DNA of 64,000 bases from Escherichia coli (GTDB lineage Bacteria; Pseudomonadota; Gammaproteobacteria; Enterobacterales; Enterobacteriaceae). Made by a program: the position numbers and the translations under genes. The stretch is from assembly GCF_003018255.1 (NCBI RefSeq), contig NZ_CP027440.1; one strand, given 5' to 3'. Position 1 is the stretch's first letter. Each line of letters starts with the position of its first letter. Positions 2,065 through 18,804 of this stretch are shown piece after piece. The notes below the pieces were generated by a model, which did not search any database, was not told the DNA's origin, and worked only from the letters and a program-made list of their open reading frames with translations.

Positions 2065-2075
2065 AAACGTCACCT

Positions 2076-3125
2076 TTATTTCCTGATAGGCAGGTAAACC
2101 GAGAACTCGGTATGACCTGGCCAACTGGTAAATTCAATTTTGCCTGAATGCTGATCAATCAAATTACGGGCGATGGATAAGCCAAGCCCGGTGCCACCTT
2201 CGCGGCCGCTGACCATCGGGTAAAACAGCGTATCCTGCAAATGAGGCGGAATACCTGGCCCGTTATCTTCCACATCAATTCGCGCCGCCAGCCGATAGCG
2301 CTCGCCGTGTAAGGTCAGTTGAAACGCTGTGCGGGTACGCAGAATGATTTCACCACCCTCCGGCCCCAGCGCCTGTAGCGCATTGCGCACAATATTCAGC
2401 AAGACCTGTTCAATTTGATCCGGGTCGTGCGCCAGTTCCGGCAGGCTGGGGTCGTAATCCCGAATCAACCGCACGTTGTCCGGCAGTTCCATCGACACCA
2501 GCGTCACCACGCGTTCAGCTACTTTATGAATACTTTCGGTAACGCGCGTACCGGGCAGTTGCGGTCCCAACAGACGGTCGACCAGATTTCGCAGCCGGTC
2601 CGCCTGTTCGATAATCACTTTGGTATATTCGAGTAGTGACGGGTCAGGTAATGCTTTGCTGAGCAGCTGCGCCGCGCCACGTAAACCGCCAAGCGGATTT
2701 TTAATCTCATGTGCCAGGCCGCGCACTAAATCACGGGCAGCAACCTGCTGGGCGTGCTGTAGCTGTTCCTGACTTAAGCGGCGCTGGTTATCCATCGGTG
2801 CCATCTCCAGCAGGATCATGCCGTCCGGCATACGCTGGGCCGTCACAGAAAGGATATGCGAGCGCCCGTCGATGACCAGCGTCACTTCGTTATCAGTAAA
2901 ACCTTGCCCCGCCTCCAGACTTTCTTGCATCAGCTCGATATTTAATGAGAAGTAGCTCAACAGTTCCGGTAACGGTGTACCAAACAATTTGCGGGAGCTT
3001 TGGGCGAGCAGTTGTTGCGCGGCGGGGTTGGCGTAATGGATCGCCAGGTTGTCATCGATTAACAAAATACTGTTAATCAGCGAGTTGAGGATCTGCCCAG
3101 CATCGGGCTGCGTGCCTGTTGCCAT
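2076..3125 (-). CDS. glnL: Nitrogen regulation sensor histidine kinase NtrB (NRII), 349 aa
   Basis: ORF-track peptide [25 protein letters not shown]... with H-box HEIKNPLGG; 11-nt gap to glnG. Confidence 0.93.
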
Positions 3126-3213
3126 AAAGCAGTCTCCTGAACAGGTTGCACCATTTTAGTGCATTATAGCTTTTTACGGATAAAAAGCGCGAAGCATCAG
3201 AGAATTGACGGAG

Positions 3214-3238
3214 AAAAAAGCCCATGCAGAGATGGGCT
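3214..3238 (-). terminator. Rho-independent terminator of glnA (hairpin gcccatctctgcatgggc followed by a T-run on the minus strand)
   Basis: Plus-strand aaaaaag-cccatgcagagatgggc read at 3214-3237. Confidence 0.6.
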
Positions 3239-3298
3239 GAAAGTTTCCACGGCAACTAAATCCCGGCGTTGTTGCGCCGGGTAGTACAACTTCAACTA
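3214..3298 (-). ncRNA. glnZ: glnA 3'UTR, candidate 3'UTR-derived sRNA (GlnZ-like)
   Basis: Region between the glnA stop and its terminator; 3'UTR-derived sRNAs from glnA are described in enterobacteria; no structure-level confirmation here. Confidence 0.3.
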
Positions 3299-4708
3299 TT
3301 AGACGCTGTAGTACAGCTCAAACTCTACCGGGTGCGGAGTCATACGCACGCGGTCATCTTCTTCGCGACGCAGAGCGATGTACGCATCGATCGCTTCATC
3401 AGTGAACACGCCACCGGCTTTCAGGAACTCACGGTCCAGATCCAGTTCGTTCAGTGCTTCTTCCAGAGAACCAGCAACCTGTGGGATCTCTTTCGCTTCT
3501 TCCGGCGGCAGGTCATACAGGTTTTTGTCCATCGCTTCGCCCGGATGGATCTTGTTCTTGATACCGTCAAGACCGGCCATCAGCAGGGCAGCAAAGCACA
3601 GGTACGGGTTAGCCGCCGGGTCCGGGAAACGTACTTCGATACGACGTGCTTTCGGAGAAGAAACCACTGGAATACGGATAGACGCAGAACGGTTACGCGC
3701 AGAGTAAGCCAGCATTACCGGTGCTTCGTAGCCCGGGACCAGACGCTTGTAAGAGTTGGTGGTCGGGTTTGCCAGGGCGTTAATCGCTTTCGCGTGTTTG
3801 ATGACGCCGCCAATGTAGTACAGCGCCTGTTCAGACAGACCTGCATATTTGTCGCCCGCGAACAGGTTAACGCCATTTTTAGCCAGCGACATATGGCAGT
3901 GCATACCGGAGCCGTTATCACCGAACATCGGTTTTGGCATAAAGGTCGCGGTTTTACCGAAGCGGTGCGCTACGTTGTGCACAACATATTTGTAGATCTG
4001 AATTTCGTCAGCTTTTTTGGTCATGGTATTGAAGCGGGTAGCCACTTCGTTCTGACCAGCAGTCGCTACTTCGTGGTGATGGGCTTCAACCACCAGACCC
4101 ATCTGTTCCATCACCAGACACATTTCAGAACGAATATCCTGAGCAGAGTCTACCGGCGGAACCGGGAAGTAACCGCCTTTCACTGCCGGACGGTGACCTT
4201 TGTTACCACCTTCGTATTGGGTGGAGGAGTTCCATGCGCCTTCGATATCGTCGATAGCAACGTGAGAACCGGAGATAGATGATCCGAAACGGATGTCATC
4301 GAACAGGAAGAATTCAGGTTCTGGCCCGAACAGTACGGTGTCGGCAATGCCAGTGGAACGCAGGTAATCTTCGGCGCGCTTCGCAATAGAGCGCGGGTCA
4401 CGGTCATAGCCTTGCAGGGTGCCAGGTTCAAGGATGTCGCAACGGATAATCAGGGTAGAATCGGCGAAGAACGGGTCAATCACTGCGGTGGATGCGTCTG
4501 GCATCAGCACCATGTCGGATTCGTTAATGCCTTTCCAGCCGCCAATCGAGGAGCCGTCAAACATTTTGCCTTCTTCGAAGAATTCAGCATTCACCTGATG
4601 AGCAGGGATAGTGACGTGCTGTTCTTTACCTTTGGTATCGGTGAAGCGCAAATCAACAAACTTCACTTCGTGCTCGTTCAGCATCGTCAGTACGTGTTCA
4701 GCGGACAT
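3299..4708 (-). CDS. glnA: Glutamine synthetase, 469 aa
   Basis: ORF-track peptide [35 protein letters not shown]...; ATG read at 4706-4708. Confidence 0.97.
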
Positions 4709-4791
4709 ACTTTAACTCTCCTGGATTGGTCATGGTCGTCGTGGTAACGAAATCTGCAATTATTTTGGCCGTGTCGCCGTAAAAAAGATAA

Positions 4792-4808
4792 AGCGAAAAC
4801 TGTGCCAA
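4792..4808 (-). promoter_or_regulatory. glnAp2 sigma54 promoter (-24/-12 element TTGGCACagtttTCGCTT on the minus strand)
   Basis: Plus-strand aagcgaaaactgtgccaa at 4791-4808 is the reverse complement of the GG-N10-GC sigma54 consensus, about 85 nt upstream of the glnA ATG. Confidence 0.75.
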
Positions 4809-4860
4809 CTTTTAAATTGCCCCTAAAAGGCGTTATCATGCTTAACATCGTGCAAAAGGG

Positions 4861-4929
4861 CTGCACCATGATGTGAATGTTGCACCAATATAGTGCTTCA
4901 ATGGAAACATTAAGCACCATATTGGTGCA
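4861..4929. promoter_or_regulatory. NtrC (NRI) upstream activator sites for glnAp2
   Basis: TGCACC...GGTGCA-type dyads read at 4881-4896 (tgcaccaatatagtgc) and 4914-4929 (gcaccatattggtgca), plus a further tgcacc repeat from 4861. Confidence 0.65.
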
Positions 4930-5080
4930 ATGACCTTTGGATAACCCTTTTTATGCTCCGTGAAAGCGATCACAAAGGGACTCTGCAATACTTGTTTGCG
5001 GAGGATGTTTGTGATCCTGTTTTGTAGTGCGATTAATCCGTGTACAATAACGCGCTATTTCTAATGCCTGAGGCAAAGTT

Positions 5081-6904
5081 GTGATCGAAAAATTGCGTAA
5101 TATCGCCATCATCGCGCACGTAGACCATGGTAAAACCACCCTGGTAGACAAGCTGCTCCAACAATCCGGTACGTTCGACTCTCGTGCCGAAACCCAAGAG
5201 CGCGTGATGGACTCCAACGATTTGGAGAAAGAGCGTGGGATTACCATCCTCGCGAAAAACACCGCTATCAAATGGAATGATTACCGTATCAACATCGTTG
5301 ATACCCCGGGGCACGCCGACTTCGGTGGTGAAGTTGAACGTGTAATGTCCATGGTAGACTCAGTGCTGCTGGTGGTTGACGCATTTGACGGCCCGATGCC
5401 GCAAACGCGCTTCGTAACCAAAAAAGCGTTTGCTTACGGCCTGAAGCCGATTGTTGTTATCAACAAAGTTGACCGCCCTGGCGCGCGTCCTGATTGGGTT
5501 GTGGATCAGGTATTCGATCTGTTCGTTAACCTCGACGCGACCGACGAGCAGCTGGACTTCCCGATCGTTTACGCTTCTGCGCTGAACGGTATCGCGGGTC
5601 TGGACCACGAAGATATGGCGGAAGACATGACCCCGCTGTATCAGGCGATTGTTGACCACGTTCCTGCGCCGGACGTTGACCTTGACGGTCCGTTCCAGAT
5701 GCAGATTTCTCAGCTCGATTACAACAGCTATGTTGGCGTTATCGGCATTGGCCGCATCAAGCGCGGTAAAGTGAAGCCGAACCAGCAGGTTACTATCATC
5801 GATAGCGAAGGCAAAACCCGCAACGCGAAAGTCGGTAAAGTGCTGGGCCACCTCGGTCTGGAACGTATCGAAACCGATCTGGCGGAAGCTGGCGATATCG
5901 TGGCGATCACGGGCCTGGGCGAACTGAACATTTCTGACACCGTTTGCGACACGCAAAACGTTGAAGCGCTGCCGGCACTCTCCGTTGATGAGCCGACCGT
6001 TTCTATGTTCTTCTGCGTTAACACCTCGCCGTTCTGCGGTAAAGAAGGTAAGTTCGTAACGTCTCGTCAGATCCTGGATCGTCTGAACAAAGAACTGGTA
6101 CACAACGTTGCGCTGCGCGTAGAAGAAACCGAAGACGCCGATGCGTTCCGCGTTTCTGGTCGTGGCGAACTGCACCTGTCTGTTCTTATCGAAAACATGC
6201 GTCGTGAAGGTTTCGAACTGGCGGTATCCCGTCCGAAAGTAATCTTCCGTGAAATCGACGGTCGTAAACAAGAGCCGTATGAAAACGTGACGCTGGACGT
6301 TGAAGAACAGCATCAGGGTTCTGTGATGCAGGCGCTGGGCGAACGTAAAGGCGACCTGAAAAACATGAATCCAGACGGTAAAGGCCGCGTACGTCTCGAC
6401 TACGTGATCCCAAGCCGTGGTCTGATTGGCTTCCGTTCTGAGTTCATGACCATGACTTCCGGTACTGGTCTGCTGTACTCCACCTTCAGCCACTACGACG
6501 ACGTACGTCCGGGCGAAGTGGGTCAGCGTCAGAACGGTGTACTGATCTCTAACGGTCAGGGTAAAGCGGTCGCGTTCGCGCTGTTCGGTCTGCAGGATCG
6601 CGGTAAGCTGTTCCTCGGTCACGGTGCAGAAGTTTACGAAGGTCAGATTATCGGTATTCATAGCCGCTCTAACGACCTGACTGTAAACTGCCTGACCGGT
6701 AAGAAACTGACCAACATGCGTGCTTCCGGTACTGACGAAGCCGTTGTTCTGGTTCCGCCTATCCGCATGACTCTGGAACAAGCTCTGGAGTTCATCGATG
6801 ATGACGAACTGGTAGAAGTGACTCCGACCTCTATCCGTATTCGTAAACGTCACCTGACGGAAAACGATCGTCGTCGCGCCAACCGCGCACCGAAAGACGA
6901 TTAA
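5081..6904 (+). CDS. typA: Ribosome-dependent translational GTPase TypA/BipA, 607 aa, GTG start
   Basis: ORF-track peptide (V)[25 protein letters not shown]...; gtg read at 5081. Confidence 0.96.
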
Positions 6905-6927
6905 TTTCGCTTTTCAGTCATAAAAAA

Positions 6928-6954
6928 CCTGCCATCGCTGGCAGGTTTTTTTTT
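6928..6954 (+). terminator. Rho-independent terminator of typA (cctgccatcgctggcagg plus T9)
   Basis: Hairpin and T-run read directly downstream of the typA stop. Confidence 0.8.
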
Positions 6955-7120
6955 ACCTGTCGTGAGCGCACACCAATGCGAGTATCTCCCTTATAAGTCT
7001 GTGATTACGTCAATAGAGAGCTTTGTCACAATTATCTGCAAAGTCATACGCCGTTAATTGCTTTCTTTTTTGGCGTAAGCGTAAGATGCCTCATCTGGTT
7101 TAAACCAAAAGGATTAAACA

Positions 7121-7831
7121 ATGGCGGAGAATCAATCCACCGTAGAAAATGCAAAAGAGAAACTGGATCGGTGGTTGAAAGATGGCATCACCACGCCGGG
7201 TGGAAAACTCCCTTCAGAAAGAGAGCTGGGAGAACTGCTGGGCATTAAACGTATGACGCTGCGCCAGGCGTTGTTGAACCTCGAGGCAGAATCCAAAATC
7301 TTCCGTAAGGATCGTAAAGGGTGGTTCGTGACCCAGCCGCGATTTAATTACAGTCCAGAGCTGTCGGCGAGCTTTCAGCGGGCTGCAATTGAGCAAGGGC
7401 GGGAGCCTTCCTGGGGGTTTACCGAGAAAAGCCGTACCAGAGATATTCCCGAGACGCTCGTGCCACTGATTACAGTGACACCATCAACTGAACTCTATCG
7501 CATCACCGGCTGGGGAGCGCTGGAAGGACATAAAGTTTTCTATCACGAAACATATATTAATCCTGAAGTTGCCCCGGGTTTTATTGAACAACTTGAAAAC
7601 CACTCATTTTCTGCAGTCTGGGAAAAGTGCTACCAAAAAGAGACGGTAGTAAAAAAATTGATTTTCAAACCCGTCAGAATGCCGGGCGATATCAGCAAGT
7701 ATCTTGGCGGTTCTGCGGGTATGCCAGCGATCTTAATTGAAAAGCATCGCGCCGACCAGCAAGGCAATATTGTCCAGATAGATATTGAATATTGGCGATT
7801 TGAGGCCGTAGACCTCATCATTAATCTGTAG
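7121..7831 (+). CDS. yihL: GntR-family transcriptional regulator, 236 aa
   Basis: N-terminal winged-HTH (SERELGELLGIKRMTLRQAL); matches K-12 YihL in length and position. Confidence 0.85.
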   Translation: MAENQSTVENAKEKLDRWLKDGITTPGGKLPSERELGELLGIKRMTLRQALLNLEAESKIFRKDRKGWFVTQPRFNYSPELSASFQRAAIEQGREPSWGFTEKSRTRDIPETLVPLITVTPSTELYRITGWGALEGHKVFYHETYINPEVAPGFIEQLENHSFSAVWEKCYQKETVVKKLIFKPVRMPGDISKYLGGSAGMPAILIEKHRADQQGNIVQIDIEYWRFEAVDLIINL

Positions 7832-7838
7832 GTGTTTT

Positions 7839-8819
7839 ATGGTGACAATAAATAACGCAAGAAAGATTCTACAACGTGTCGACACTCTTCCTCTTTATTT
7901 ACATGCTTATGCCTTTCATTTAAATATGCGGCTGGAAAGAGTGTTGCCTGCTGATTTACTTGATATCGCAAGTGAAAATAATCTACGTGGCGTCAAAATC
8001 CATGTTCTGGATGGCGAGCGTTTTTCTCTTGGTAATATGGACGATAAAGAACTCTCTGCCTTTGGGGATAAAGCCCGCCGTCTGAACCTTGATATTCATA
8101 TTGAAACCAGCGCTTCAGATAAGGCATCTATTGACGAAGCCGTCGCCATTGCGTTGAAAACTGGGGCATCGTCCGTACGTTTTTATCCACGTTATGAAGG
8201 TAATTTGCGCGACGTATTATCGATCATCGCTAACGACATTGCCTATGTACGGGAAACGTATCAGGACAGCGGCCTGACTTTTACGATCGAACAGCATGAA
8301 GATTTAAAAAGCCATGAGCTGGTGTCGCTGGTCAAAGAAAGTGAGATGGAATCTCTTTCCTTACTGTTTGATTTTGCGAACATGATCAATGCAAATGAGC
8401 ATCCCATCGACGCTTTAAAAACGATGGCACCGCATATTACCCAGGTCCATATCAAAGATGCCTTGATCGTTAAAGAAGAGGGTGGCCTGGGTCATAAAGC
8501 CTGTATTTCAGGTCAGGGTGATATGCCGTTCAAAGCGTTATTAACGCACCTTATCTGCCTGGGTGATGATGAGCCGCAGGTGACGGCATATGGCCTGGAA
8601 GAAGAGGTTGATTACTATGCGCCGGCGTTCCGCTTTGAAGACGAAGATGATAATCCGTGGATCCCTTATCGCCAGATGAGTGAAACACCATTGCCAGAAA
8701 ATCATTTACTGGATGCGCGGTTACGTAAAGAAAAAGAAGATGCAATTAATCAGATAAATCATGTGCGTAATGTACTACAACAAATCAAACAAGAGGCAAA
8801 CCATCTTCTGAACAACTAA
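7839..8819 (+). CDS. yihM: Sugar-phosphate isomerase/epimerase (xylose-isomerase-like TIM barrel) family protein, 326 aa
   Basis: ORF-track peptide; position and length match K-12 YihM. Confidence 0.8.
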   Translation: MVTINNARKILQRVDTLPLYLHAYAFHLNMRLERVLPADLLDIASENNLRGVKIHVLDGERFSLGNMDDKELSAFGDKARRLNLDIHIETSASDKASIDEAVAIALKTGASSVRFYPRYEGNLRDVLSIIANDIAYVRETYQDSGLTFTIEQHEDLKSHELVSLVKESEMESLSLLFDFANMINANEHPIDALKTMAPHITQVHIKDALIVKEEGGLGHKACISGQGDMPFKALLTHLICLGDDEPQVTAYGLEEEVDYYAPAFRFEDEDDNPWIPYRQMSETPLPENHLLDARLRKEKEDAINQINHVRNVLQQIKQEANHLLNN

Positions 8820-8920
8820 TAAGTTTTAACTCATACGCTGTTAATAAAACCATTCCATATGAATGGTCGGTATCTTATTGCCTTTAAAACAGTGATTTTA
8901 AAAATCGCTTAGGGGATGTT

Positions 8921-10186
8921 ATGCTCACGAAAAAGAAATGGGCGTTATTTAGTCTATTAACATTGTGTGGCGGTACAATTTATAAATTACCGTCTCTGAA
9001 AGATGCGTTTTATATCCCGATGCAGGAATATTTCCATTTGACCAATGGTCAAATTGGTAATGCTATGTCGGTAAACTCATTTGTCACCACAGTGGGCTTT
9101 TTTCTGTCTATTTATTTTGCCGATAAACTACCGCGCAGATACACCATGTCATTCTCACTCATTGCGACAGGATTACTGGGTGTTTATTTGACGACAATGC
9201 CGGGGTATTGGGGCATCCTCTTTGTCTGGGCGCTATTTGGCGTTACTTGCGACATGATGAACTGGCCGGTCTTGCTCAAGTCGGTAAGTCGATTGGGCAA
9301 TAGCGAACAACAAGGTCGGTTGTTTGGCTTCTTCGAAACAGGGCGTGGCATTGTCGATACCGTGGTGGCATTTTCTGCGTTGGCAGTATTTACCTGGTTT
9401 GGCAGTGGCTTATTGGGTTTTAAAGCAGGCATCTGGTTCTATTCCCTTATTGTGATTGCCGTAGGCATTATCATTTTCTTTGTCCTGAATGACAAAGAAG
9501 AGGCACCGTCCGTTGAGGTGAAAAAAGAAGACGGAGCATCGCAAAACACCAGTATGACCTCGGTGCTGAGAGATAAAACCATCTGGCTTATCGCTTTCAA
9601 CGTCTTCTTCGTTTACGCGGTTTACTGTGGCCTAACATTCTTCATTCCATTCCTGAAAAACATCTATCTATTGCCCGTTGCTCTGGTGGGGGCTTACGGC
9701 ATCATTAACCAATACTGTCTGAAAATGATTGGAGGACCGATTGGTGGCATGATTTCAGATAAGATCCTGAAATCGCCGAGTAAATATCTATGCTACACCT
9801 TTATCATAAGTACCGCTGCGCTCGTACTGTTGATTATGCTGCCGCACGAAAGTATGCCGGTCTATTTAGGGATGGCATGTACGCTGGGCTTTGGCGCTAT
9901 AGTCTTCACACAGCGAGCCGTATTTTTTGCACCTATCGGCGAAGCAAAAATTGCTGAAAATAAAACAGGCGCGGCGATGGCGTTGGGTAGCTTTATTGGT
10001 TACGCCCCGGCGATGTTCTGCTTCAGTCTGTATGGCTACATTCTGGATTTAAATCCGGGGATTATTGGCTACAAAATCGTGTTTGGCATTATGGCCTGCT
10101 TCGCATTCTGTGGTGCGGTGGTTTCCGTAATGCTGGTTAAGCGTATTAGCCAACGTAAGAAAGAGATGCTGGCGGCTGAAGCTTAA
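8921..10186 (+). CDS. yihN: MFS transporter, 421 aa
   Basis: Polytopic membrane protein; position and length match K-12 YihN. Confidence 0.85.
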   Translation: MLTKKKWALFSLLTLCGGTIYKLPSLKDAFYIPMQEYFHLTNGQIGNAMSVNSFVTTVGFFLSIYFADKLPRRYTMSFSLIATGLLGVYLTTMPGYWGILFVWALFGVTCDMMNWPVLLKSVSRLGNSEQQGRLFGFFETGRGIVDTVVAFSALAVFTWFGSGLLGFKAGIWFYSLIVIAVGIIIFFVLNDKEEAPSVEVKKEDGASQNTSMTSVLRDKTIWLIAFNVFFVYAVYCGLTFFIPFLKNIYLLPVALVGAYGIINQYCLKMIGGPIGGMISDKILKSPSKYLCYTFIISTAALVLLIMLPHESMPVYLGMACTLGFGAIVFTQRAVFFAPIGEAKIAENKTGAAMALGSFIGYAPAMFCFSLYGYILDLNPGIIGYKIVFGIMACFAFCGAVVSVMLVKRISQRKKEMLAAEA

Positions 10187-10245
10187 TTAGTGGCCGGATG
10201 TGCTTAATCCGGCCAACGAAAACCGTATCAACCGAAGTTTCAATT

Positions 10246-11034
10246 TCAGGATACTTCTTGCTCGGCAACCACCAGTTCAACATTCTCTTCACTTAACAAC
10301 TGGCAGAAAGAATTGGGAGGCGGGGCATCAGTAAAAAAAGCCCTGACATTCCGTGCATTGCCAATTGAAACGGCAGCAGACGCGGTAAACTTCGTATGAT
10401 CGGCCACTAACAATGTATTCCGCGCATGTTTAATCATCGTTCTCGCGACTAACGCTTCATTGACATCAAATTCCAGTAGGGTGCCGTCATGTTCAATGGC
10501 ACCTATACTGGTGATTAAATAATCTGCGCGGAAGCCTTCAATAAAATCCACGGCTCCTGGGCCGATAATCCCACCGTTATGAGCGCGTAAAGTGCCTCCC
10601 GGCACCATCACTTCAATATCCTGATTCTTATAAAGAATCTGTGCCACACGCAGGCTATTAGTGATAATGCGTAAATCACGCCGGTTGAGTAATGCCCTGG
10701 CAACGGCTTCTACGGTTGTACCGATGGTGATAAAGACGGTACAGCGTTCGGGAAGGTAATCGGCGACTGCCTCAGCGATCGCCCGTTTCTCGGCGGTGAG
10801 CGAAAGTTCCCGTTGCTCAAAAGCGGTATTCATGACGCTGGAGACGCGCCCGGCCCCTCCATGATGACGGGTGATCAAGCCCTGCTCACTGAGTTTTCGG
10901 ATATCCCGGCGCACGGTTTGCGTTGAAACATCCAGCAGTTGTGCCAGTTCTTCAATATTCATATAACCGCGTTCTGCGATTAGATGAACGAGTTGGTCAT
11001 GGCGTGGATTACCTGTCACTTCGATGATACTCAT
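10246..11034 (-). CDS. DeoR-family transcriptional regulator (YihW/CsqR-like), 262 aa
   Basis: N-terminal HTH (IEELAQLLDVSTQTVRRDIRKL) and DeoR C-terminal sugar-phosphate-binding domain; ATG read at 11032-11034 with upstream RBS. Confidence 0.8.
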   Translation of the reverse strand: MSIIEVTGNPRHDQLVHLIAERGYMNIEELAQLLDVSTQTVRRDIRKLSEQGLITRHHGGAGRVSSVMNTAFEQRELSLTAEKRAIAEAVADYLPERCTVFITIGTTVEAVARALLNRRDLRIITNSLRVAQILYKNQDIEVMVPGGTLRAHNGGIIGPGAVDFIEGFRADYLITSIGAIEHDGTLLEFDVNEALVARTMIKHARNTLLVADHTKFTASAAVSIGNARNVRAFFTDAPPPNSFCQLLSEENVELVVAEQEVS

Positions 11035-11073
11035 GAATACTCCCTTGCCCCTCCTCGGTAGATGTTTACCATT

Positions 11074-11970
11074 TTACGCATAAAGTGACAAAAATGATTC
11101 GGTTTGCTCACGATTAGGAATGCCGGCCCGACCGCCAGGCTGGGTACATTTCATCGCGGCAACCGCACTGGCAAAACGAATAGCCTCTTTTGTTGGCATT
11201 TTTTCTGCCAACGCTACCGCGAGTGCGCCGTGAAAAACATCGCCTGCTCCAGTGGTATCAACCACATTGACAGAAAATGCCTCCTGTTGACACAAATGAC
11301 CATCTTCAATCCACAACGATCCTTCAGAACCCAGCGTAACATACACTTTACCTGCTGTTTGTGTCGTTGCCTGGAACAAACCTTCTTCAGGTGACTGCAG
11401 GCCAGTCATGCGTTTCAGCCCAGGTGTTGAGAACACGGCGTGATCGGCAAGCGCGACAAGTGGAGAAATATCCTGCGGTGTCATATCGGCGTCTAAAAGC
11501 GTTGTCACACCCGCAAGGCGCGCTAGCGAGAATGCTTTTTCAGTACCGCTATGCCAGCGAACATCGGCCAGAATCAGATCATAACGAGAGAAATCGATCG
11601 CTTCTAACCATTCGGCATCAGTACCGAGATCAGGACTTGGATAATTAACGATAATCCGTTCGCCATGCTGATCAACGAGGATCGCTGATTGCGACGAACG
11701 GGCGTTAGGATATCGGCGGCAAAATGCGGTATTGACGCCCCAACCCTCAAGTTCTGCAAGTAAGGTATTTCCACAACTGTCATCGCCGACGCGACCGATG
11801 AAATCAACCTCCACGCCAAGCTTTGCGATTGCAACAGCGGCTGTTGCTGCCGGGCCGCCACCAATCTCAAGATAATGATTTGCCTGATATTTCCCGCCGC
11901 CCTCCGGCAGAGTGGGCAAAGAATAAATCCTGTCCTGAACTGTGATACCCACGCATGCAATTCTGGTCAT
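11074..11970 (-). CDS. PfkB-family sugar kinase (YihV / 6-deoxy-6-sulfofructose kinase-like), about 298 aa
   Basis: ORF 11074..12021; start placed at internal ATG ([13 protein letters not shown]...); PfkB signature [18 protein letters not shown]. Confidence 0.8.
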
Positions 11971-12142
11971 ATTTGTCTTGTCCTGTTTAATTTTGTCGTC
12001 TTTGGTCAATTTAAATGACACAAATGATCAAATTAGTGATGCGTGTCGTGTTTTTGAACATAAATTACAAATATGCTCAAAAACAGACGAAAACGAATTT
12101 TCAATTGTCATTATTTTGTCAATGTCAGACAGGAGAGTATTC
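11971..12142. promoter_or_regulatory. Divergent intergenic control region between the kinase/regulator and reductase/aldolase operons, with TTGTCA direct repeats
   Basis: AT-rich 172-bp region; TTGTCA read at 12105-12110 and 12116-12121 (11-bp spacing), tgtcag at 12123-12128; RBS aggagag at 12131-12137. Confidence 0.4.
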
Positions 12143-13021
12143 ATGGCAACCATTGCATTTCTCGGGCTGGGGCAGATGGGTAGCCCAATGGCTAACAATC
12201 TATTGCAAAAAGGGCATTCATTGCAGGTATTTGATGTCAATGCACAGGCCGTCGATGTGCTAGTTACGCAGGGGGCCACTGCGGCACAAACCCCAGCGGA
12301 AGCAGCAGCAGGCGCTGAATTTATCATCACTATGCTTCCCAATGGTGACATTGTTCGACAGGTTCTGTTGGGGGAAAAAGGCGTCTGTGAGGCTGTTTCA
12401 TCTGACGCGTTATTGATTGATATGTCGACTATTCATCCCTTACAGACCGATGCATTAATACGGGAGTTACAAGAAAAAGGCATCAGTATGATGGACGCTC
12501 CCGTGGGCAGAACGTCCGTGAATGCGATTGATGGCACATTGCTGATTTTAGCGGGTGGCACTGATGAGCAGATTGCACGTGCACGCCCGATTCTCATGTG
12601 CATGGGTAATGAACTGGTCGAGGCTGGCGGCCCAGGAATGGGGATCCGCGTGAAGCTAATTAACAACTATATGAGCATTGCGCTTAATGCGCTGTCCTCC
12701 GAGGCCGCTGTGTTATGTGAGTCACTGGGATTAAATCTTGATGTCGCAATTAAGGTGATGAGTGGTACGGCAGCAGGGAAAGGACATTTTACGACCACCT
12801 GGCCTGGCAAAGTGCTGAAAGGCGATCTTTCACCCGCCTTCATGGTGGATCTGGCGTTGAAAGATCTGCGTATTGCAGTTGACGTCGCTCGGGAGACGGG
12901 GGCACCGCTCAATATGGGGATTGCAGCAGAAAGTTATTACGCCGCAGCAAGTCAAGACGGCAAAGGGCGGCAGGATTGGAGTGCCCTGCTAAATCAGGTT
13001 CGCCAGCAGGCTGGTCTTTAA
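12143..13021 (+). CDS. NAD(P)-dependent HIBADH-family reductase (YihU / 3-sulfolactaldehyde reductase-like), about 292 aa
   Basis: ORF 11942..13021; start placed at ATG 12143 ([20 protein letters not shown], Rossmann GxGxxG). Confidence 0.8.
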
Positions 13022-13045
13022 TTTTATCTATTAACAGGAGTTTCT

Positions 13046-13933
13046 ATGTCATCCCACTTCACCCCATTTACGCTGAAAGATATCTCCCGCCCAGGTGGTG
13101 GATTCGCCATGTTAGCTGTCGATCAGCGTGAGGCCATGCGCCTGATGTTTGCGGCAGCAGGGCAGCCAAAACCCATCGCCGACAGTGTACTCACCGATTT
13201 TAAAGTTGCCGCGACCCGAATCCTTTCTCCTTATGCTTCTGCCGTTCTGGCGGATAAACAATTTTGTCTTGAACAAATAGTCGAGCAGGGCGCTGTGGCT
13301 AATTCTTGCGGCCTGATTGTCGCTGCCGATCTTTTTATCCCAGGTAATGGCATCCCGGTTGATAGCGTTGAAATAGATATGTCCGTCGACCCGCATAAAG
13401 CCCGTGAAATGGGGGCTAAGGCAATGAAATTACTTGTACTCTGGCGTGAAGATGAACCCGCAGAGGAACGTCTGGCAATGGTTGATAAATTTGTTCGTCG
13501 CTGCCGTAGTGCCGGGCTGGTTAGCATTATTGAACCTGTGGTGCGTCCACCTCGTCGCGGTTGGGACTTTGATCGTGAAAGCGCCATTGTTGCCGCCGCC
13601 GCAGAGCTTGGTGGAACAGAGGCTGATCTTTACAAAGCCGAGATGCCATTAGGGGGCAAAGGCGATGAAAAAACCTTACTTGCCGCCTGTCAGCAACTTA
13701 ACGATCAGATGAAGATGCCGTGGGTAATTCTTTCTTCTGGCGTTGATGCCGATATTTTTGGCCGTGCAGTAAGTATTGCCATGAAAGGTGGTGCGTCGGG
13801 CTTCCTGGCTGGACGAGCGGTATGGGCGTCGGTTGTTGGTGCACAAGATCCACAAACCATGCTGCGCGATGTCTCCGTTCCACGCTTGCAACGGCTGGCT
13901 GAAATTGTCGATGAAGGTATCGCGCAACGCTAA
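13046..13933 (+). CDS. Class I aldolase of the LacD/DeoC family (YihT / sulfofructose-phosphate aldolase-like), 295 aa
   Basis: ORF-track peptide [29 protein letters not shown]...; family assignment from recollection. Confidence 0.7.
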
Positions 13934-13965
13934 TCCCCTATGGATATCGATTCTGGAGAATAACA

Positions 13966-14976
13966 ATGGATAAAATTACCCAGGTTTTATTTTCAGATAT
14001 TGGGAAAGTCACCACTCAATATGTTGAAGTACCACACCAGCAACTTAAACCGCACGAAGTACGGATTGCGCCCGTGTTCTACGGGATATGCGGTTCGGAT
14101 CTGCATGTTCTGAAAGGCGGTCATCCGTTTGCCAAGCCGCCTGTCGTCCCCGGTCATGAAATTGCAGCGCGCGTTACGGAAGTGGGCAGCGACGTTAAAA
14201 ATGTACAGCCGGGCGATCATGTTGTGGTCGATCCCATCATGGCTTGCATGGAATGCCGAGCCTGCAAAGCAGGACGTTTTAATCTTTGTGAACCACCGCA
14301 GGTTGCTGGTTTTCGCGCACCGGGCTTTGCTCGCTCACAACACATTGTTCCTGCGCGTAATTGCCATGTCGCACCAGCCTCTTTACCGCTAAAAGTGTTG
14401 GCCTTTGCCGAACCGGCGGCTTGTGCTCGTCACTGCGTTAACCGAATGCCGAAAGCTTCTCTGGAAAGCGTACTGGTGATTGGTGCCGGAACGATAGGCT
14501 TATCCATCGTGCAGGCACTGCGCATTATGGGGGCAGGTAAGATTACCGTGATTGAACCTGACGCTGCCAAACGCGCGCTGGCGTTAAAGCTGGGCGCAGC
14601 AGAAGTTTGGGCACCAGGTGAGCTGGCCGCAGATGTGAGATTTACGGGGGCGATTGATGTCGTTGCAGCGCAGGCCACGCTTAACGATGCATGTACCCGT
14701 GTATATGCCGGAGGCACCGTCGTGTGCATGGGCGTACCAAGTGGGCCGCGTGAAATACCATTACCGATGATGCAACGTTTCGAGCGTGACTTGCTCAACT
14801 CTGGCATGTACATCCCTGAAGATTTCGATGCTGTTATCGAATGGCTGGCGGATGGGCGGTTTGATACCAGTGAACTGGTTACCGATTTATTTGCCATTGA
14901 GGATGCAGCGGCGGCATTCGAACGCGCGCAGCAAAATGACTCCATAAAGGTCATGCTGCAATTTGCGCCGGAATGA
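13966..14976 (+). CDS. Zn-dependent medium-chain alcohol/polyol dehydrogenase (sorbitol/galactitol-1-phosphate dehydrogenase-like), 336 aa
   Basis: Catalytic-zinc motif CGSDLH...GHE, structural-zinc cysteines CMECRACKAGRFNLC, NAD-binding VIGAGTIGL. Confidence 0.8.
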   Translation: MDKITQVLFSDIGKVTTQYVEVPHQQLKPHEVRIAPVFYGICGSDLHVLKGGHPFAKPPVVPGHEIAARVTEVGSDVKNVQPGDHVVVDPIMACMECRACKAGRFNLCEPPQVAGFRAPGFARSQHIVPARNCHVAPASLPLKVLAFAEPAACARHCVNRMPKASLESVLVIGAGTIGLSIVQALRIMGAGKITVIEPDAAKRALALKLGAAEVWAPGELAADVRFTGAIDVVAAQATLNDACTRVYAGGTVVCMGVPSGPREIPLPMMQRFERDLLNSGMYIPEDFDAVIEWLADGRFDTSELVTDLFAIEDAAAAFERAQQNDSIKVMLQFAPE

Positions 14977-15045
14977 TTTTCTAAATCTCTGTCTGGCGCT
15001 GCGTCACGTCAGCGCCACCCTACAACAATTAAAAAGGACACTGCG

Positions 15046-16479
15046 ATGAGTCAAATCACCAGTCCTGCAACTTATTCAATTAGTCGGCCACAGGACGTAA
15101 TTGATATTGTTAATAAGAACTCTGCAATCAACACCAGTATCGGCGTTATTTTTATTGCTTTGGGCGGCATATTGATTGATGCCTACCAGGTGGCGATGGT
15201 GGGGTTTGGTAATAAATACATTGCCGCTCAATTCGGCATTTCTCCGGGTCTTGCTGCGACCGTCAATGCGTCAGTATTAATCGCCGCGTTAATTGGCGGT
15301 TTATTAGCGAACCGAGTAATAAACCGCTTTGGGCAAAAGCGGGCATTTATTATTGGCATGGGGCTGTGCACCATCGGTGCTGCAGCGGTAGCTATTGCTC
15401 CCAGTATCTGGTGGGTGCTGGTGTGCCGCGTCATCATGGGCTTTGGTTTAGGCATCGACTTCCCTTTGGCAACTAATGCCGTGGCAGAGCTTCGTGGTTC
15501 AACGTCGAAGAAAACCGGAACGTCGGTCAACCTCTGGCAAATGGCCTGGTATGTTTCGACAACCGTTGTTTATTTGGTGCTTTTGCCGCTGCTTCTGTCG
15601 GGTATCGCTGAAGAACAATTGTGGCGTTACGGAATATTCATCGGAGCTATTTTTGCAGTCATCTTCATGATTTTGCGTTACTTCTTTATTGGTGAATCCG
15701 CAATGTGGGCCGCACGCGTTGGGCGTTACCAGGAAGCGTGCGACATTCTGGGAAAACGTTATGGTGTTCAGGCTCGCGTTGCGGCATCGGGTACAACAGA
15801 AGCGAAATTCTCGGAAAAAGCAGAGAATAAATACAGTGGTGGATATGGCATCTTATTTAATGATCGTTACCGCAAACGCACCATTCTTGGCTGTGTCGTG
15901 GCAACCATGCAGGCGTGGCAATATAACGCCGTAGGTGTTTATCTTCCTCTTACGTTGGCGGGAATAATAAGTGGCGGGCTTACTGGCGCGTTGACCGGTT
16001 CTGCCGTCGTGAATGCCCTTTGTGGGGTGACAGGTGGGATGATCGGCTCGTTTATTCTCCAACGACTGGGTACTCGCCGACAGTCGATGTATGGATTTGC
16101 TGTTGTGACCTTAGCATTGCTGTCGTTAGGCGCACTGGCAACGACTAATCCTTGGCTGTCTTTAGGGTTATTGGGATCAATTATTTTCTTCCATTCAGCG
16201 GGTCCTGGTGGGCTGGGCATGACCATTGCCACACTCTCTTATCCTCCCGCTATTCGCCCTACTGGGGTCGGATTTGCCCGCGCTATTATGCGCACAGGGG
16301 CAATTGCAGGACTCATTTTCTGGCCGATGCTGTGGGGTGCGTTGAAAACTGAAGCGTTTTACTGGTTGGCAATCGTGCCATTCCTGGGATTCCTAACCTG
16401 TGTATTGATTAATTGGGAACCACTGGGTGCAAATGTTGATGCTGAGGACGCAGAGGTTCTGGCTGAATTGAAGAAATAA
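15046..16479 (+). CDS. MFS transporter, 477 aa
   Basis: Multiple hydrophobic segments; MFS motif A (GGLLANRVINRFGQKRAF). Confidence 0.8.
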   Translation: MSQITSPATYSISRPQDVIDIVNKNSAINTSIGVIFIALGGILIDAYQVAMVGFGNKYIAAQFGISPGLAATVNASVLIAALIGGLLANRVINRFGQKRAFIIGMGLCTIGAAAVAIAPSIWWVLVCRVIMGFGLGIDFPLATNAVAELRGSTSKKTGTSVNLWQMAWYVSTTVVYLVLLPLLLSGIAEEQLWRYGIFIGAIFAVIFMILRYFFIGESAMWAARVGRYQEACDILGKRYGVQARVAASGTTEAKFSEKAENKYSGGYGILFNDRYRKRTILGCVVATMQAWQYNAVGVYLPLTLAGIISGGLTGALTGSAVVNALCGVTGGMIGSFILQRLGTRRQSMYGFAVVTLALLSLGALATTNPWLSLGLLGSIIFFHSAGPGGLGMTIATLSYPPAIRPTGVGFARAIMRTGAIAGLIFWPMLWGALKTEAFYWLAIVPFLGFLTCVLINWEPLGANVDAEDAEVLAELKK

Positions 16480-16577
16480 TTTAATGCGCATCGGCTTAAG
16501 CCGATGCGCATTAATTCAAACTGCCCACGTTTAGTGGTTCGTATCCCAGATTTCTCGCCTACCAGGAGAGGAAAATT

Positions 16578-17927
16578 ATGTCTGAAAAGTTACCCGCACC
16601 GCGTGAAGGGCTTTCCGGTAAAGCCATGAGACGTGTCGTTATGGGCAGTTTCGCAGGCGCGTTAATGGAATGGTATGACTTCTTTATTTTTGGCACGGCA
16701 GCAGGACTGGTATTTGCACCGCTGTTTTATCCAGACAGCGATCCTTTTATAGGTCTTATAGCTTCCTTTGCGACCTTTGGTGTCGGTTTTCTGACTCGTC
16801 CTTTAGGGGGCATCGTCTTTGGTCATTTTGGCGATAAAATCGGGCGAAAAATAACACTTATCTGGACGCTGGCTATTGTCGGTTGCTCCACATTTTTGAT
16901 TGGTTTTATTCCGACGTATCAGGAAATTGGCATTTGGGCACCGCTTGTATTAATGGTGCTGCGTTTGATTCAGGGCTTTGGTCTTGGTGGCGAGTACGGT
17001 GGAGCGGCATTGATGACCATAGAATCAGCGCCCGAATCCCGACGCGGATTTTTAGGTTCACTCCCGCAAACGGCTGCGTCTGTGGGTATTATGCTGGCAA
17101 CCGGTATTTTTGCTCTCTGTAACCATTTTCTTACTTCGGAGCAGTTTCTCTCCTGGGGATGGCGCATTCCGTTTTGGCTTTCTGCGGTGATGTTGATCGT
17201 TGGGCTGTTTATCCGCCTACATACCGAAGAAACGCTGGATTTTCAAAAGCAAAAAACGACGAATAATAAAGAAAAGTCCGTTCCTCCGTTGATTGAATTA
17301 TTCAAAAAACATCCACGAAATATTTTATTGGCACTGGGTGCGAGGCTGGCGGAAAGTGTCTCCTCTAATATTATTAATGCCTTTGGTATTGTCTATATTT
17401 CCAGCCAATTAGCATTGTCGCGAGATATTCCCCTGACGGGTATGTTGATTGCCTCGGCGATCGGTATTTTCAGTTGTCCATTGGTTGGATGGTTATCAGA
17501 TCGTATAGGTCAAAAAAGTCTGTATTTGTCGGGAGCAGGATTTTGTGTCCTGTTCGCGTTTCCTTTCTTCTTATTATTGGATAGCAAAAGTACGCTCATC
17601 ATCTGGTGCAGTATGATCCTCGGCTACAACTTAGGTCCGACGATGATGTTTGCCGTGCAGCCAACACTTTTCACCCGCATGTTCGGTACCAAAGTACGAT
17701 ATACCGGCCTTTCTTTTGCTTATCAATTTTCCGCGATTCTTGGCGGACTAAGCCCCCTTATCGCCTCAAGTTTGCTGGCGCTAGGGGGAGGAAAACCGTG
17801 GTATGTCGCTCTGTTTTTATTTGCTGTCTCAGTTCTTTCCTTTGTTTGCGTCTGGCTGATTGAGCCGACCGATGAACAAGAAACCGCTTCTTACCGCTAC
17901 ATCAGGGAACAATCTCATGAAAACTGA
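16578..17927 (+). CDS. MFS transporter of the metabolite:H+ symporter type (ProP/KgtP/ShiA-like), 449 aa
   Basis: Characteristic N-terminus EWYDFFIFG and GHFGDKIGRK loop motif. Confidence 0.75.
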   Translation: MSEKLPAPREGLSGKAMRRVVMGSFAGALMEWYDFFIFGTAAGLVFAPLFYPDSDPFIGLIASFATFGVGFLTRPLGGIVFGHFGDKIGRKITLIWTLAIVGCSTFLIGFIPTYQEIGIWAPLVLMVLRLIQGFGLGGEYGGAALMTIESAPESRRGFLGSLPQTAASVGIMLATGIFALCNHFLTSEQFLSWGWRIPFWLSAVMLIVGLFIRLHTEETLDFQKQKTTNNKEKSVPPLIELFKKHPRNILLALGARLAESVSSNIINAFGIVYISSQLALSRDIPLTGMLIASAIGIFSCPLVGWLSDRIGQKSLYLSGAGFCVLFAFPFFLLLDSKSTLIIWCSMILGYNLGPTMMFAVQPTLFTRMFGTKVRYTGLSFAYQFSAILGGLSPLIASSLLALGGGKPWYVALFLFAVSVLSFVCVWLIEPTDEQETASYRYIREQSHEN

Positions 17928-18804
17928 ACGAAAAAACGAGCATTACCTGGCGCTACAACAGGCGTTTGACGCGCCATGGCCTGGGCCTGTAGGAGAGTTA
18001 GTGATGCTGGAAAAAGGCAATATTCACCTGCAGATTTATCCGCATGATGGTGCCAGGATAACCTCGTTAAAGGCATTTGGTTCTGAAGTATTACGCCAAT
18101 GGCAGCCGCAGCGCAGAGCTTTTCAGTATGGCTGTTTCCCAATGGTGCCGTGGGCAGGGCGACTGGGGAATGCGACGCTGAATGCTGGTGGGCAATGTTA
18201 TTCTTTACCCGCCAATAAACCACCACATGCGTTGCATGGTATGGCTTGTTACTCAACGTGGGAAATCATCGACAAAACAGCAGATTCCCTGACTTTACGT
18301 ATGCCCCTGGCTTCACCGTGGCCCTGGCAAGGGGAAGTGATTCAGACTTTTTTGCTGGAGAACGATGCGCTGGTTTTGCAACTGGAAGTCCATTCATATG
18401 CCGATACATTCCCGGCCTCCGCAGGCTGGCATCCGTGGTTTGCGAAAAAGCTGACTCCGCAAAATACAGAATCGTTGCAGGTGCTTTTTGATGCGGACTG
18501 GCAAGAAGAAGCGGGTAGTGATGAACTGCCAACTGGAAATCGTATCTCTCCTCAAGTCGGTCCCTGGGATGACTGTTTTGGTTTTTATGACGGGGTGAAG
18601 GTTAAGTTACTGTGGCCTGGTAAACTCGCGATGACCATGACCTCTTCTGCAAACAGTCTGGTGGTATTTGATAAACAGCCCGATGCCACCTGTATTAACC
18701 CGCTGACTCAGGCACCTAACGCAATAAATCTAACGCCGGAATTTGTGACACCAGATAAGCCGCTGGTCATCGAAACTCGTTGGCAATTTACACCTGAATC
18801 TTAA
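17872..18804 (+). CDS. Aldose 1-epimerase (mutarotase)-like protein (YihR-like), about 310 aa; alternative ATG at 17917
   Basis: ORF 17860..18804 begins at a TTG; ATG codons at 17872 and 17917; start overlaps the end of the upstream transporter gene. Confidence 0.65.
   Translation: MNKKPLLTATSGNNLMKTERKNEHYLALQQAFDAPWPGPVGELVMLEKGNIHLQIYPHDGARITSLKAFGSEVLRQWQPQRRAFQYGCFPMVPWAGRLGNATLNAGGQCYSLPANKPPHALHGMACYSTWEIIDKTADSLTLRMPLASPWPWQGEVIQTFLLENDALVLQLEVHSYADTFPASAGWHPWFAKKLTPQNTESLQVLFDADWQEEAGSDELPTGNRISPQVGPWDDCFGFYDGVKVKLLWPGKLAMTMTSSANSLVVFDKQPDATCINPLTQAPNAINLTPEFVTPDKPLVIETRWQFTPES

Follow-up and report, generated by a model that had tools for sequence, protein, structure and literature searches.

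In a stretch of 64,000 nucleotides from the Escherichia coli chromosome (contig NZ_CP027440.1; hereafter the window), the gene at 13966-14976 (+) encodes a zinc-dependent dehydrogenase of the medium-chain dehydrogenase/reductase (MDR) superfamily that occupies the place of the aldose-ketose isomerase in a cassette of sulfoglycolysis genes. The eight-gene cassette sits between yihN and yihX, inverted relative to the cluster that fills this interval in K-12, ompL-yihOPQRSTU/yihVW, which encodes the Embden-Meyerhof-Parnas type of sulfoglycolysis (sulfo-EMP) of sulfoquinovose (SQ), and it is a complete alternative allele replacing those K-12 sulfoquinovose genes. The dehydrogenase in the isomerase's place points to an uncharacterised entry route into sulfoglycolysis, and possibly to a sulfonated substrate of a new kind. 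Our preferred assignment, made from sequence and by analogy and held tentatively at somewhat less than an even chance, is an NAD+-dependent 6-deoxy-6-sulfo-hexitol 2-dehydrogenase that would make sulfofructose (SF).

The allele itself has been described before. Kaznadzey et al. 2025 (PMC12608037) named it a 'short, truncated yihTUVW cassette'; in their account it occupies the same position, is reversed in orientation, has 72% YihW identity, is enriched in pathogens and found in numerous strains of extraintestinal pathogenic E. coli (ExPEC) and in Nissle 1917. That account is silent on the dehydrogenase, on two genes for transporters of the major facilitator superfamily (MFS) and on an epimerase-like gene, none of which is among its listed differentially expressed genes. 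In other phyla it is these four overlooked genes that are conserved and inherited together as the cassette's core, and the allele has been partly mis-described as a truncation. A first-pass annotation made from the letters of the window had picked out the zinc dehydrogenase and the missing isomerase, and both points stand; the yih locus, the status as an alternative allele and the partial prior description had all escaped it.

The dehydrogenase is a polyol-type zinc MDR outside the named families

The dehydrogenase gene is a clean, intact open-reading frame (ORF) of 336 codons from ATG to stop, and RefSeq labels the identical gene 'zinc-dependent alcohol dehydrogenase' (WP_000357981.1). Its product combines a GroES-like catalytic domain (ADH_N, 2.9e-26) with a Rossmann domain (ADH_zinc_N, 2.9e-17) and contains the motifs CGSDLH (residues 42-47), GHE (63-65) and GxGxxG (173-178). 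The catalytic zinc ligands Cys42, His64, Glu65 and Glu149 align with those of RspB, ketose reductase and threonine dehydrogenase (Tdh), Glu149 being the second glutamate typical of polyol dehydrogenases, and the structural zinc lobe is formed by the invariant residues Cys94, Cys97, Cys100 and Cys108. Across 25 orthologues the four catalytic ligands do not vary, and the zinc ligands, structural cysteines, GxGxxG motif and Glu197/Asp199 taken together are invariant or nearly so. The position of Glu197/Asp199 after the GxGxxG motif indicates NAD rather than NADP as the cofactor. The AlphaFold model is confident (predicted local distance difference test score, pLDDT, 91.6), so that reading frame, Pfam domains, motifs and model all bear out the earlier placement of the protein in the MDR family, which had been based on GHE, CGSDLH and the structural-zinc cysteines.

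The best structure matches of the model were IdnD, RspB, the sorbitol dehydrogenases of human, sheep and whitefly, xylitol and arabinitol dehydrogenases, Tdh and HpsP, with template-modelling (TM) scores of 0.88-0.91 to IdnD, RspB and sorbitol dehydrogenase. The protein fell short of the curated cut-off of every named model against which it was scored. These were the RspB/L-gulonate 5-dehydrogenase model PRK10083 (165.2 bits, equivalog cut-off 376), the Tdh models NF003808 and TIGR00692 (139.2 and 119.6 bits, cut-offs 380 and 458), the GatD model NF007642 (113.4 bits over residues 20-225 only, cut-off 550), the IdnD model NF007375 (125.1 bits, cut-off 469) and the IolM model NF041097 (149 bits, cut-off 450), the last being its second-best NCBIfam match. 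Nor does it belong with HpsP, to which it is 26% identical (PDB 8wwd), its context being kinase, aldolase and MFS genes and not hpsO/hpsN. Judged by these scores, which leave the polyol-type assignment of the first-pass annotation in place, the enzyme is a polyol-dehydrogenase-type zinc MDR outside the named equivalogs (RspB, IolM, Tdh, IdnD and GatD), and it is predicted to oxidise a polyol hydroxyl with NAD+. Arg117 is invariant and specific to the family and lies in a flexible loop (pLDDT ~60) where relatives have His, Asp or Pro; the corresponding loop of sorbitol dehydrogenase lines the substrate pocket, and in the model Arg117 is a possible ligand for an anion.

No isomerase accompanies the predicted sulfonate-processing enzymes

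A tblastn search of the window in all frames returned no homologue of YihS, YihQ, YihO, YihP or OmpL, in agreement with the earlier remark that the cassette encodes no aldose-ketose isomerase. Nor does one appear to be supplied from elsewhere, since the window holds none and strains with the short allele lack homologues of yihO-S, including yihS, elsewhere in the genome (PMC12608037). Outside E. coli, tblastn found no YihS homologue within 10 kb of 12 orthologous loci, neither a YihS-type isomerase nor a YihQ glycosidase was present at the orthologous loci examined, and no isomerase-type Pfam domain was detected inside the cassette at further loci, in a search that did not extend to SqvD. An unrelated phosphoglucose isomerase gene lies ~5 kb from the dehydrogenase on one Logan contig (L091), outside the cassette.

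Three candidates for the missing isomerase function were rejected. The product of yihM (7839-8819) is annotated as a member of the sugar-phosphate isomerase/epimerase family, but the gene is part of the flank found with both alleles, is 99.4% identical to that of K-12 and is absent from cassettes outside Enterobacteriaceae, which rules out a cassette-specific role. The mutarotase-fold protein encoded at the end of the cassette is unlikely to be the true isomerase, as several cassettes that are complete in other respects lack it. A conserved second dehydrogenase, which would allow a two-enzyme route from aldose through alditol to ketose, was not found either, the extra zinc-dependent alcohol dehydrogenases near the Streptomyces, Prauserella and L091 cassettes sharing only 26-32% identity.

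The enzymes that would act downstream carry the signature of sulfonated substrates. The PfkB kinase, class I aldolase and YihU-like reductase named as neighbours in the first-pass annotation are all real by RefSeq, homology and NCBIfam, and the sulfonate pockets of their K-12 counterparts YihV, YihT and YihU have been defined structurally by Sharma et al. (PMC8006165). The window kinase retains the sulfonate triad Lys27/Asn109/Arg138 and the catalytic Asp244, together with Asp13, Ser95 and Asp162; in the alphaproteobacterial and Streptomyces cassettes the kinases are non-orthologous and lack this triad. The aldolase retains the Schiff-base Lys193 along with Arg253 of the sulfonate/phosphate pocket, Ser226/Ser227 and Ala26 in the window, Rhodopseudomonas palustris and Streptomyces proteins alike, and the window reductase retains Arg123/Asn174/Ser178, which bind 2,3-dihydroxypropane-1-sulfonate (DHPS) and sulfolactaldehyde (SLA). 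By these residues, kinase, aldolase and reductase almost certainly process SF, sulfofructose-1-phosphate (SFP) and SLA, respectively. Because the partners are those typical of the pathway and carry the sulfonate residues, SF must be supplied somehow.

We also considered whether the dehydrogenase might oxidise some other sulfosugar, such as sulfofucose, sulforhamnose or a keto-sulfosugar, which would be funnelled to a 6-deoxy-6-sulfo-ketohexose for a promiscuous LacD-type aldolase. Other sulfosugars exist, sulfofucose in algae and archaea and sulforhamnose as a product of YihS; the aldolase is a member of the tagatose-bisphosphate aldolases; and most cassettes hold the mutarotase-fold gene. Action on a ring hydroxyl is plausible for a zinc MDR, given that IolM acts on a cyclitol ring, and YcjQ is a further zinc MDR that acts on ring hydroxyls. 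However, the E. coli kinase keeps all SF-specific contacts of YihV, a single dehydrogenase cannot alone convert an aldose epimer to a 2-ketose, and no second conserved redox or isomerase partner is present. This makes oxidation of another sulfosugar a rather remote prospect. The known sulfofucose pathway was discarded as a model, being of the Entner-Doudoroff type and unrelated.

A proposed sulfo-hexitol 2-dehydrogenase would supply sulfofructose

In the pathway that we propose, one of the MFS transporters would bring in a 6-deoxy-6-sulfo-hexitol, most simply the -D-glucitol or -mannitol, and the dehydrogenase would oxidise the C2 hydroxyl beside the terminal CH2OH to give 6-deoxy-6-sulfofructose and NADH. 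The YihV-like kinase would then form sulfofructose-1-phosphate, the YihT-like aldolase would split this into dihydroxyacetone phosphate (DHAP) and sulfolactaldehyde, and the YihU-like reductase would use NADH to reduce sulfolactaldehyde to DHPS for export. As the NADH made by the dehydrogenase would be consumed by the SLA reductase, the upper pathway would be redox-neutral; the SLA reductase is NADH-dependent (PMC12890257), which matches a dehydrogenase of the NAD type. The nearest relatives of the dehydrogenase in both sequence and structure are RspB, the sorbitol/ketose reductases, IdnD and the xylitol and arabinitol dehydrogenases. All of these oxidise the secondary alcohol adjoining a terminal CH2OH in polyols or sugar acids. 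That a sulfonated polyol can be the substrate of this enzyme class is proven, for a relative, by HpsP acting on DHPS. What the substrate is, at which position it is oxidised and in which direction flux runs are our inferences.

The behaviour of the allele toward SQ is compatible with this assignment. Kaznadzey et al. (PMC12608037) observed no transcriptional response of the short cassette to SQ in Nissle 1917, whereas expression of the K-12 genes rose by a log2 fold change of at least 5. They also found that Nissle YihW binds to the yihU/V region and that SQ releases it less strongly than it does CsqR. Genes that SQ does not induce and a regulator that responds to it weakly fit a cognate substrate that resembles SQ and is not SQ.

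Several observations weigh against a sulfo-hexitol substrate. No natural 6-deoxy-6-sulfo-hexitol is known, and full-text searches for sulfoquinovitol, sulfoglucitol and similar terms returned nothing; identity of the dehydrogenase to every characterised relative is only 24-28%; and in vitro the Nissle regulator does come off DNA in response to SQ (PMC12608037). HpsP, a sorbitol-dehydrogenase-like MDR, oxidises a primary and not a secondary hydroxyl (PMC11131964), and therefore the position oxidised cannot be read from family membership. Finally, most cassettes carry the mutarotase-fold gene, whose presence would make sense if the substrate were a reducing sugar but not if it were an alditol.

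This last argument is weakened by the features of the mutarotase-fold protein. It shares 27% identity with YihR over 164 aa only, and the mutarotase fold is supported by a Foldseek match to 3nre (E = 6.6e-19, TM 0.75) and by both histidine motifs, HALHG and GWHPWF. The general-base glutamate (Glu304 of Lactococcus lactis GalM, 'VEP' in YihR) is replaced by Asn261 ('CINPL') in the window protein, and of 11 cassette orthologues seven have Asn here and four have Glu. The family has invariant motifs of its own (RAFQYGCFPMxPWxGR, GPWDDxFGF and FDKQPDAxC), and its gene is the least constrained of the cassette and is absent from several cassettes, some actinobacterial ones among them. A role of the protein as an SF anomerase was rejected as pointless, since SF anomerises spontaneously with a half-life of 26 s, compared to 299 min for SQ.

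Redox isomerisation of SQ as an alternative

An unlikely, though not negligible, alternative is that SQ itself enters the pathway by redox isomerisation, C1 of open-chain SQ being reduced to the alditol and C2 then oxidised to give SF, so that YihS would be functionally replaced. The dehydrogenase would do this alone with recycling NAD(H) or together with an aldose reductase, and the mutarotase-fold protein would help to deliver the reactive form of SQ. In keeping with this, no abundant natural C6 sulfonate other than SQ is known, the habitats of the cassette are diverse and offer SQ, the dehydrogenase and YihS were mutually exclusive at all loci examined, and the Nissle regulator is dissociated from DNA by SQ, as noted above. 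The very slow spontaneous mutarotation of SQ would also give a mutarotase-like partner a role, and HpsP, with the adjacent hydroxyl held by zinc, converts aldehyde to primary alcohol and back on a chain that bears a sulfonate. Set against these points are the absence of SQ induction in Nissle 1917 and the conditions of the reported 'growth on SQ' of K-12 and Nissle 1917, with SQ given as sole carbon source, for which cells were grown in M9 with 5% LB and harvested at an optical density (OD) of 0.2-0.3 (PMC12608037); use of SQ is not shown by such growth, and SQ catabolism by Nissle in the absence of the long cassette is not secure.

The choice of a redox partner also speaks against an isomerisation of SQ. 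The first-pass annotation had suggested that the YihU-like reductase reduces the aldose, an idea now disfavored, as this protein looks like a dedicated SLA reductase: it passes the NCBIfam SLA 3-reductase equivalog NF012005 (580 bits, cut-off 348) and keeps the DHPS/SLA residues, and at other loci it is replaced by a non-orthologous beta-hydroxyacid dehydrogenase (beta-HAD) or absent while the dehydrogenase is kept. No other conserved oxidoreductase is at hand, given the low mutual identity of the extra alcohol dehydrogenases. Nicotinoprotein MDRs hold their cofactor by means of an insertion; the 336-aa dehydrogenase is without it, and the E. coli mutarotase-like protein is without the canonical base. 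The stricter version, in which the dehydrogenase would be a self-contained redox isomerase that recycles NAD(H) and takes SQ through the alditol to SF without releasing the intermediate, with the mutarotase-fold protein as a ring-opening helper, is improbable in our estimate. Full-text literature searches found no paper tying a zinc-dependent alcohol dehydrogenase to sulfosugars and nothing usable on reductases of SQ or SF, and a 2026 review lists no isomerase-free variant of sulfo-EMP.

The cassette is conserved and under purifying selection

Out of 5,426 complete E. coli genomes, 1,326 (~24%), including sequence type 131 (ST131), carry the dehydrogenase gene in single copy with an identity of at least 95%, and the cassette is enriched in ExPEC and B2 lineages, the probiotic Nissle 1917 included. 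Two of 1,327 E. coli matches to the gene were on plasmid-typed records. Orthologues of 55-94% identity lie in the same cassette at 20 or more loci in four bacterial classes, with a sharp drop below 55%. The block of aldolase, dehydrogenase and two MFS genes was found in Alpha-, Beta- and Gammaproteobacteria and in Actinobacteria, in hosts that include Citrobacter (three loci), Phytobacter, Budvicia, Sutterella, Vibrio rhodolitus, R. palustris, Rhodovastum, Pleomorphomonas, Telmatospirillum, Streptomyces marincola, a metagenome-assembled genome of Propionibacteriaceae and several metagenome contigs. A scan of a genome collection contributed ~9 true orthologue loci to this set; one peptide pattern used in it was too general and returned mostly MDR paralogues.

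Gene order (aldolase, dehydrogenase, MFS1, in some cases reductase, MFS2, in some cases the epimerase-like gene) is kept in essentially all loci at similar identities, and MFS1 (65-91% identity) and MFS2 (62-89%) are co-inherited with the dehydrogenase. Around this core, other functions are exchanged. In Alphaproteobacteria and Streptomyces, non-orthologous PfkB and beta-HAD proteins (~30% identity) stand in for kinase and reductase. The class I aldolase gives way to a class II enzyme in Vibrio-type loci and apparently in Budvicia too, where no YihT-like ORF was found. On the Logan contig L091 (SRR11809820, 837-10983), a CUT1 ATP-binding cassette (ABC) transporter (SBP_bac_1 and two permeases) replaces the MFS pair; this contig also encodes an additional DUF2090/DeoC-like protein and another zinc-dependent alcohol dehydrogenase, which is non-orthologous.

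Between E. coli, Citrobacter and Phytobacter, dN/dS of the dehydrogenase is 0.015-0.026, the lowest in the cassette, with the caveat that dS is saturated and the ratios are approximate. The dehydrogenase gene is under strong purifying selection and is no chance ORF. The conservation of the isomerase-less arrangement across phyla therefore marks the dehydrogenase as a genuine pathway component in a conserved cassette core.

These data bear directly on the view that the dehydrogenase is an ordinary polyol or alcohol enzyme, or that the cassette is what is left, without function, of the long yih cluster. The missing SQ induction and the label 'truncated' (PMC12608037) would suit that view, as would the generic public names of the four extra proteins (dehydrogenase, MFS1, MFS2 and epimerase-like protein) and the surroundings of a 45%-identical out-clade in Prauserella, which are uronate-type. 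Nevertheless, all eight genes are intact with dN/dS of 0.015-0.15 between genera, the dehydrogenase is intact in 1,326 E. coli genomes, the cassette is conserved over four bacterial classes, the sulfonate residues are intact in three partner enzymes, and on one metagenome contig, described below, the kinase-aldolase-dehydrogenase trio is tied to SuyAB-like, HpsG and SauS genes. The cassette is not a decaying remnant, and we consider an ordinary or defunct role to be very improbable.

The Prauserella locus (L013/L014, 2194-16289) combines the out-clade protein with a DeoR regulator, a kinase, a YihT-like aldolase (56%) and an MFS2-like transporter, and its uronate-type neighbours are a fructuronate-reductase-like gene, another zinc-dependent alcohol dehydrogenase, a short-chain dehydrogenase/reductase and a tripartite ATP-independent periplasmic (TRAP) transporter. 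The out-clade was set aside as a probable enzyme of different specificity in view of these neighbours and is possibly a carboxylate-sugar counterpart of the cassette.

A probable sulfonate island on a metagenome contig

A contig from JGI metagenome 3300026363 (L089) links the cassette to sulfonate metabolism outside E. coli. Here the beta-HAD reductase is absent, and the kinase-aldolase-dehydrogenase trio is kept, with the dehydrogenase translationally packed with kinase and aldolase. The trio lies directly 3′ of SAF and GD_AH genes (SuyAB-like), of aldehyde dehydrogenase and 2-hydroxyacid dehydrogenase genes and of one for an Ldh_2 protein, which matches L-sulfolactate dehydrogenase best. The DHPS glycyl-radical enzyme HpsG (1517 bits, cut-off 1000) and the sulfoacetaldehyde dehydrogenase SauS (669 bits, cut-off 600) are encoded close by. 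The same region (770-18720) also holds an alkanesulfonate-monooxygenase-like gene, a coenzyme A ligase and an HpsG activase, and as a whole it looks like a complete sulfosugar-to-sulfite island. Since the dehydrogenase is kept where an oxidative step takes the place of SLA reduction, this locus argues that the dehydrogenase acts upstream of SLA.

The same contig can be read in favor of a role below the aldolase, in which the dehydrogenase would be an HpsP-like SLA/DHPS oxidoreductase, either a second SLA reductase or a DHPS dehydrogenase, and the cassette would start from an imported ketose such as sulfofructose. HpsP, a (S)-DHPS dehydrogenase that forms SLA, is a zinc MDR of the same structural group and a good match in sequence (E = 6e-30) and in structure (TM 0.84-0.86), and where the beta-HAD reductase is lacking and HpsG is present the SLA-to-DHPS step could fall to the dehydrogenase. 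On the other hand, its identity to HpsP is no higher than to sorbitol dehydrogenase, RspB and IdnD, and a beta-HAD reductase is already part of nearly all cassettes, the one in E. coli being a bona fide YihU-type enzyme. On L089 itself, the aldehyde dehydrogenase and the sulfolactate route handle SLA, and the dehydrogenase is packed with the kinase and aldolase. An HpsP-like role would moreover leave the cassette without a source of its ketose and the tight co-inheritance with aldolase and transporters unexplained, and we think it quite unlikely.

Organisation of the locus

The window shows the chromosomal order glnA-typA-yihLMN ... yihX-yihY-dtd-fabY, and the flanking yihL, yihM, yihN and yihX are 98-99% identical to those of K-12. 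The features of the cassette are collected in Table 1. Directly upstream of it, yihL/yihM/yihN (7121-10186) encode a GntR regulator, a xylose-isomerase-like TIM-barrel protein and an MFS transporter; in E. coli and Citrobacter they are found alongside either yih allele, and in other taxa they are not parts of the cassette.

Table 1 Features of the cassette in the window
Feature	Position	Strand	Support
DeoR-family regulator, YihW/CsqR-like, 262 aa	10246..11034	-	72% identity to K-12 CsqR; RefSeq DeoR/GlpR regulator
PfkB-family kinase, YihV-like SF kinase (putative), 298 aa	11074..11970	-	67% identity to K-12 YihV
Divergent intergenic control region between kinase and reductase genes, 172 bp, AT-rich	11971..12142	.	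Matches the yihU/V region bound by YihW (PMC12608037)
Beta-hydroxyacid-dehydrogenase-family SLA reductase (putative), YihU-like, 292 aa	12143..13021	+	73% identity to K-12 YihU
Class I (LacD/DeoC-type) aldolase, YihT-like SFP aldolase (putative), 295 aa	13046..13933	+	67% identity to K-12 YihT
Zinc-dependent MDR dehydrogenase, polyol-dehydrogenase group, NAD-type (predicted), 336 aa	13966..14976	+	ORF, Pfam, motifs, model, orthologues
MFS transporter 1, aromatic-acid:H+ symporter / sugar-porter-like, 477 aa	15046..16479	+	Best NCBIfam match TIGR00895, under cut-off
Palindromic hairpin, perfect 15-bp stem	16481..16514	.	Starts 2 nt past the MFS1 stop codon
MFS transporter 2, metabolite:H+ symporter (ShiA-like), 449 aa	16578..17927	+	TIGR00883 406.8 bits, shikimate-transporter model 409.7 bits; both under cut-off
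Galactose-mutarotase-fold protein, annotated aldose 1-epimerase, 295 aa	17917..18804	+	Overlaps the MFS2 gene by 11 nt

A scan with the sigma-70 consensus found nothing above background in the spacer between the kinase and reductase genes, and overall the sigma-70-like sites (6, compared to 11.6 in shuffled controls) were uninformative on operon starts. The hairpin after MFS1 is a 34-nt palindrome with a 4-nt loop (-25.9 kcal/mol, z = -6.25) that lies 64 nt before MFS2 and has no U-tract on the sense strand. Judged by its sequence, it is probably an attenuating or mRNA-stabilising element rather than a full terminator, and it may split the expression of the operon.

Relation to known systems

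The cassette resembles the sulfo-EMP pathway of K-12 (Denger 2014, Sharma 2021) in its yihN-yihX slot, in four orthologues of 67-73% identity and in the sulfonate residues, and DHAP and DHPS would be the expected products of both. It differs in its inverted orientation, in the lack of YihQ, YihS, the GPH transporters YihO/YihP and OmpL, in the presence of the zinc MDR, two unrelated MFS transporters and a divergent mutarotase-fold protein, and in the absence of SQ induction in Nissle 1917.

The nearest named relatives of the dehydrogenase are RspB (L-gulonate 5-dehydrogenase) and IdnD/LgoD, as judged by the score with PRK10083 (165 bits), the match to PDB 4ilk (2e-37) and a shared 'HPFAKPP' loop, and JGI auto-names some of its orthologues L-gulonate 5-dehydrogenase. 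Enzymes of the RspB type oxidise the penultimate carbon of an anion-terminated polyol and so give the keto-sugar that an isomerase would give, the isomerase being bypassed (the Ashwell, L-gulonate and L-galactonate routes). The dehydrogenase is set apart from them by an identity of 24-27%, its own Arg117 loop and a sulfoglycolytic rather than uronate context.

A second comparison is with the E. coli ydj cluster, which is built alike, with a DeoR regulator (YdjF), zinc MDRs (YdjJ/YdjL), a PfkB kinase (YdjH), a DHAP-releasing aldolase (YdjI), an aldehyde reductase (YdjG) and two MFS transporters (YdjE/YdjK). The third-best structural match of the dehydrogenase is PDB 5vm2 (ECK1772), which we take to be a dehydrogenase of this cluster. 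The ydj route has been proposed to begin with oxidation of an anion-terminated polyol to a 2-ketose. Unlike the cassette, it is directed to carboxylate sugars and uses a class II aldolase, and the proteins are not orthologous (27% identity).

HpsP (PDB 8wwd; PMC11131964) is likewise a sorbitol-dehydrogenase-type zinc MDR with catalytic and structural zinc that acts on a sulfonated polyol. It differs in its sequence (26% identity) and in oxidising the primary hydroxyl of a C3 compound to give SLA, and it is found in hpsOPN operons with DHPS transporters, whereas the dehydrogenase lies between an SFP-type aldolase and MFS transporters.

Implications for sulfoglycolysis

E. coli is a model sulfoglycolytic organism, and sulfonates derived from SQ feed H2S-producing gut bacteria. 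Roughly 24% of sequenced E. coli have this cassette in place of the textbook cluster, and the literature treats it as a truncated, probably inactive remnant. If the dehydrogenase were to act as a redox isomerase on its own, it would replace the aldose-ketose isomerase YihS without being homologous to it and by a new mechanism, and one in four E. coli strains, ST131, ExPEC and Nissle 1917 among them, would degrade SQ by an unrecognised route. If, as we favor, it is a sulfo-hexitol 2-dehydrogenase, an unrecognised sulfonated substrate such as a sulfo-alditol would be a new organosulfur currency; if SQ is the substrate, bacteria would have a second, redox-based way from SQ to sulfofructose. Either reading would change how genomes and metagenomes are scored for sulfoglycolytic potential, which now relies on yihQ and yihS as markers.

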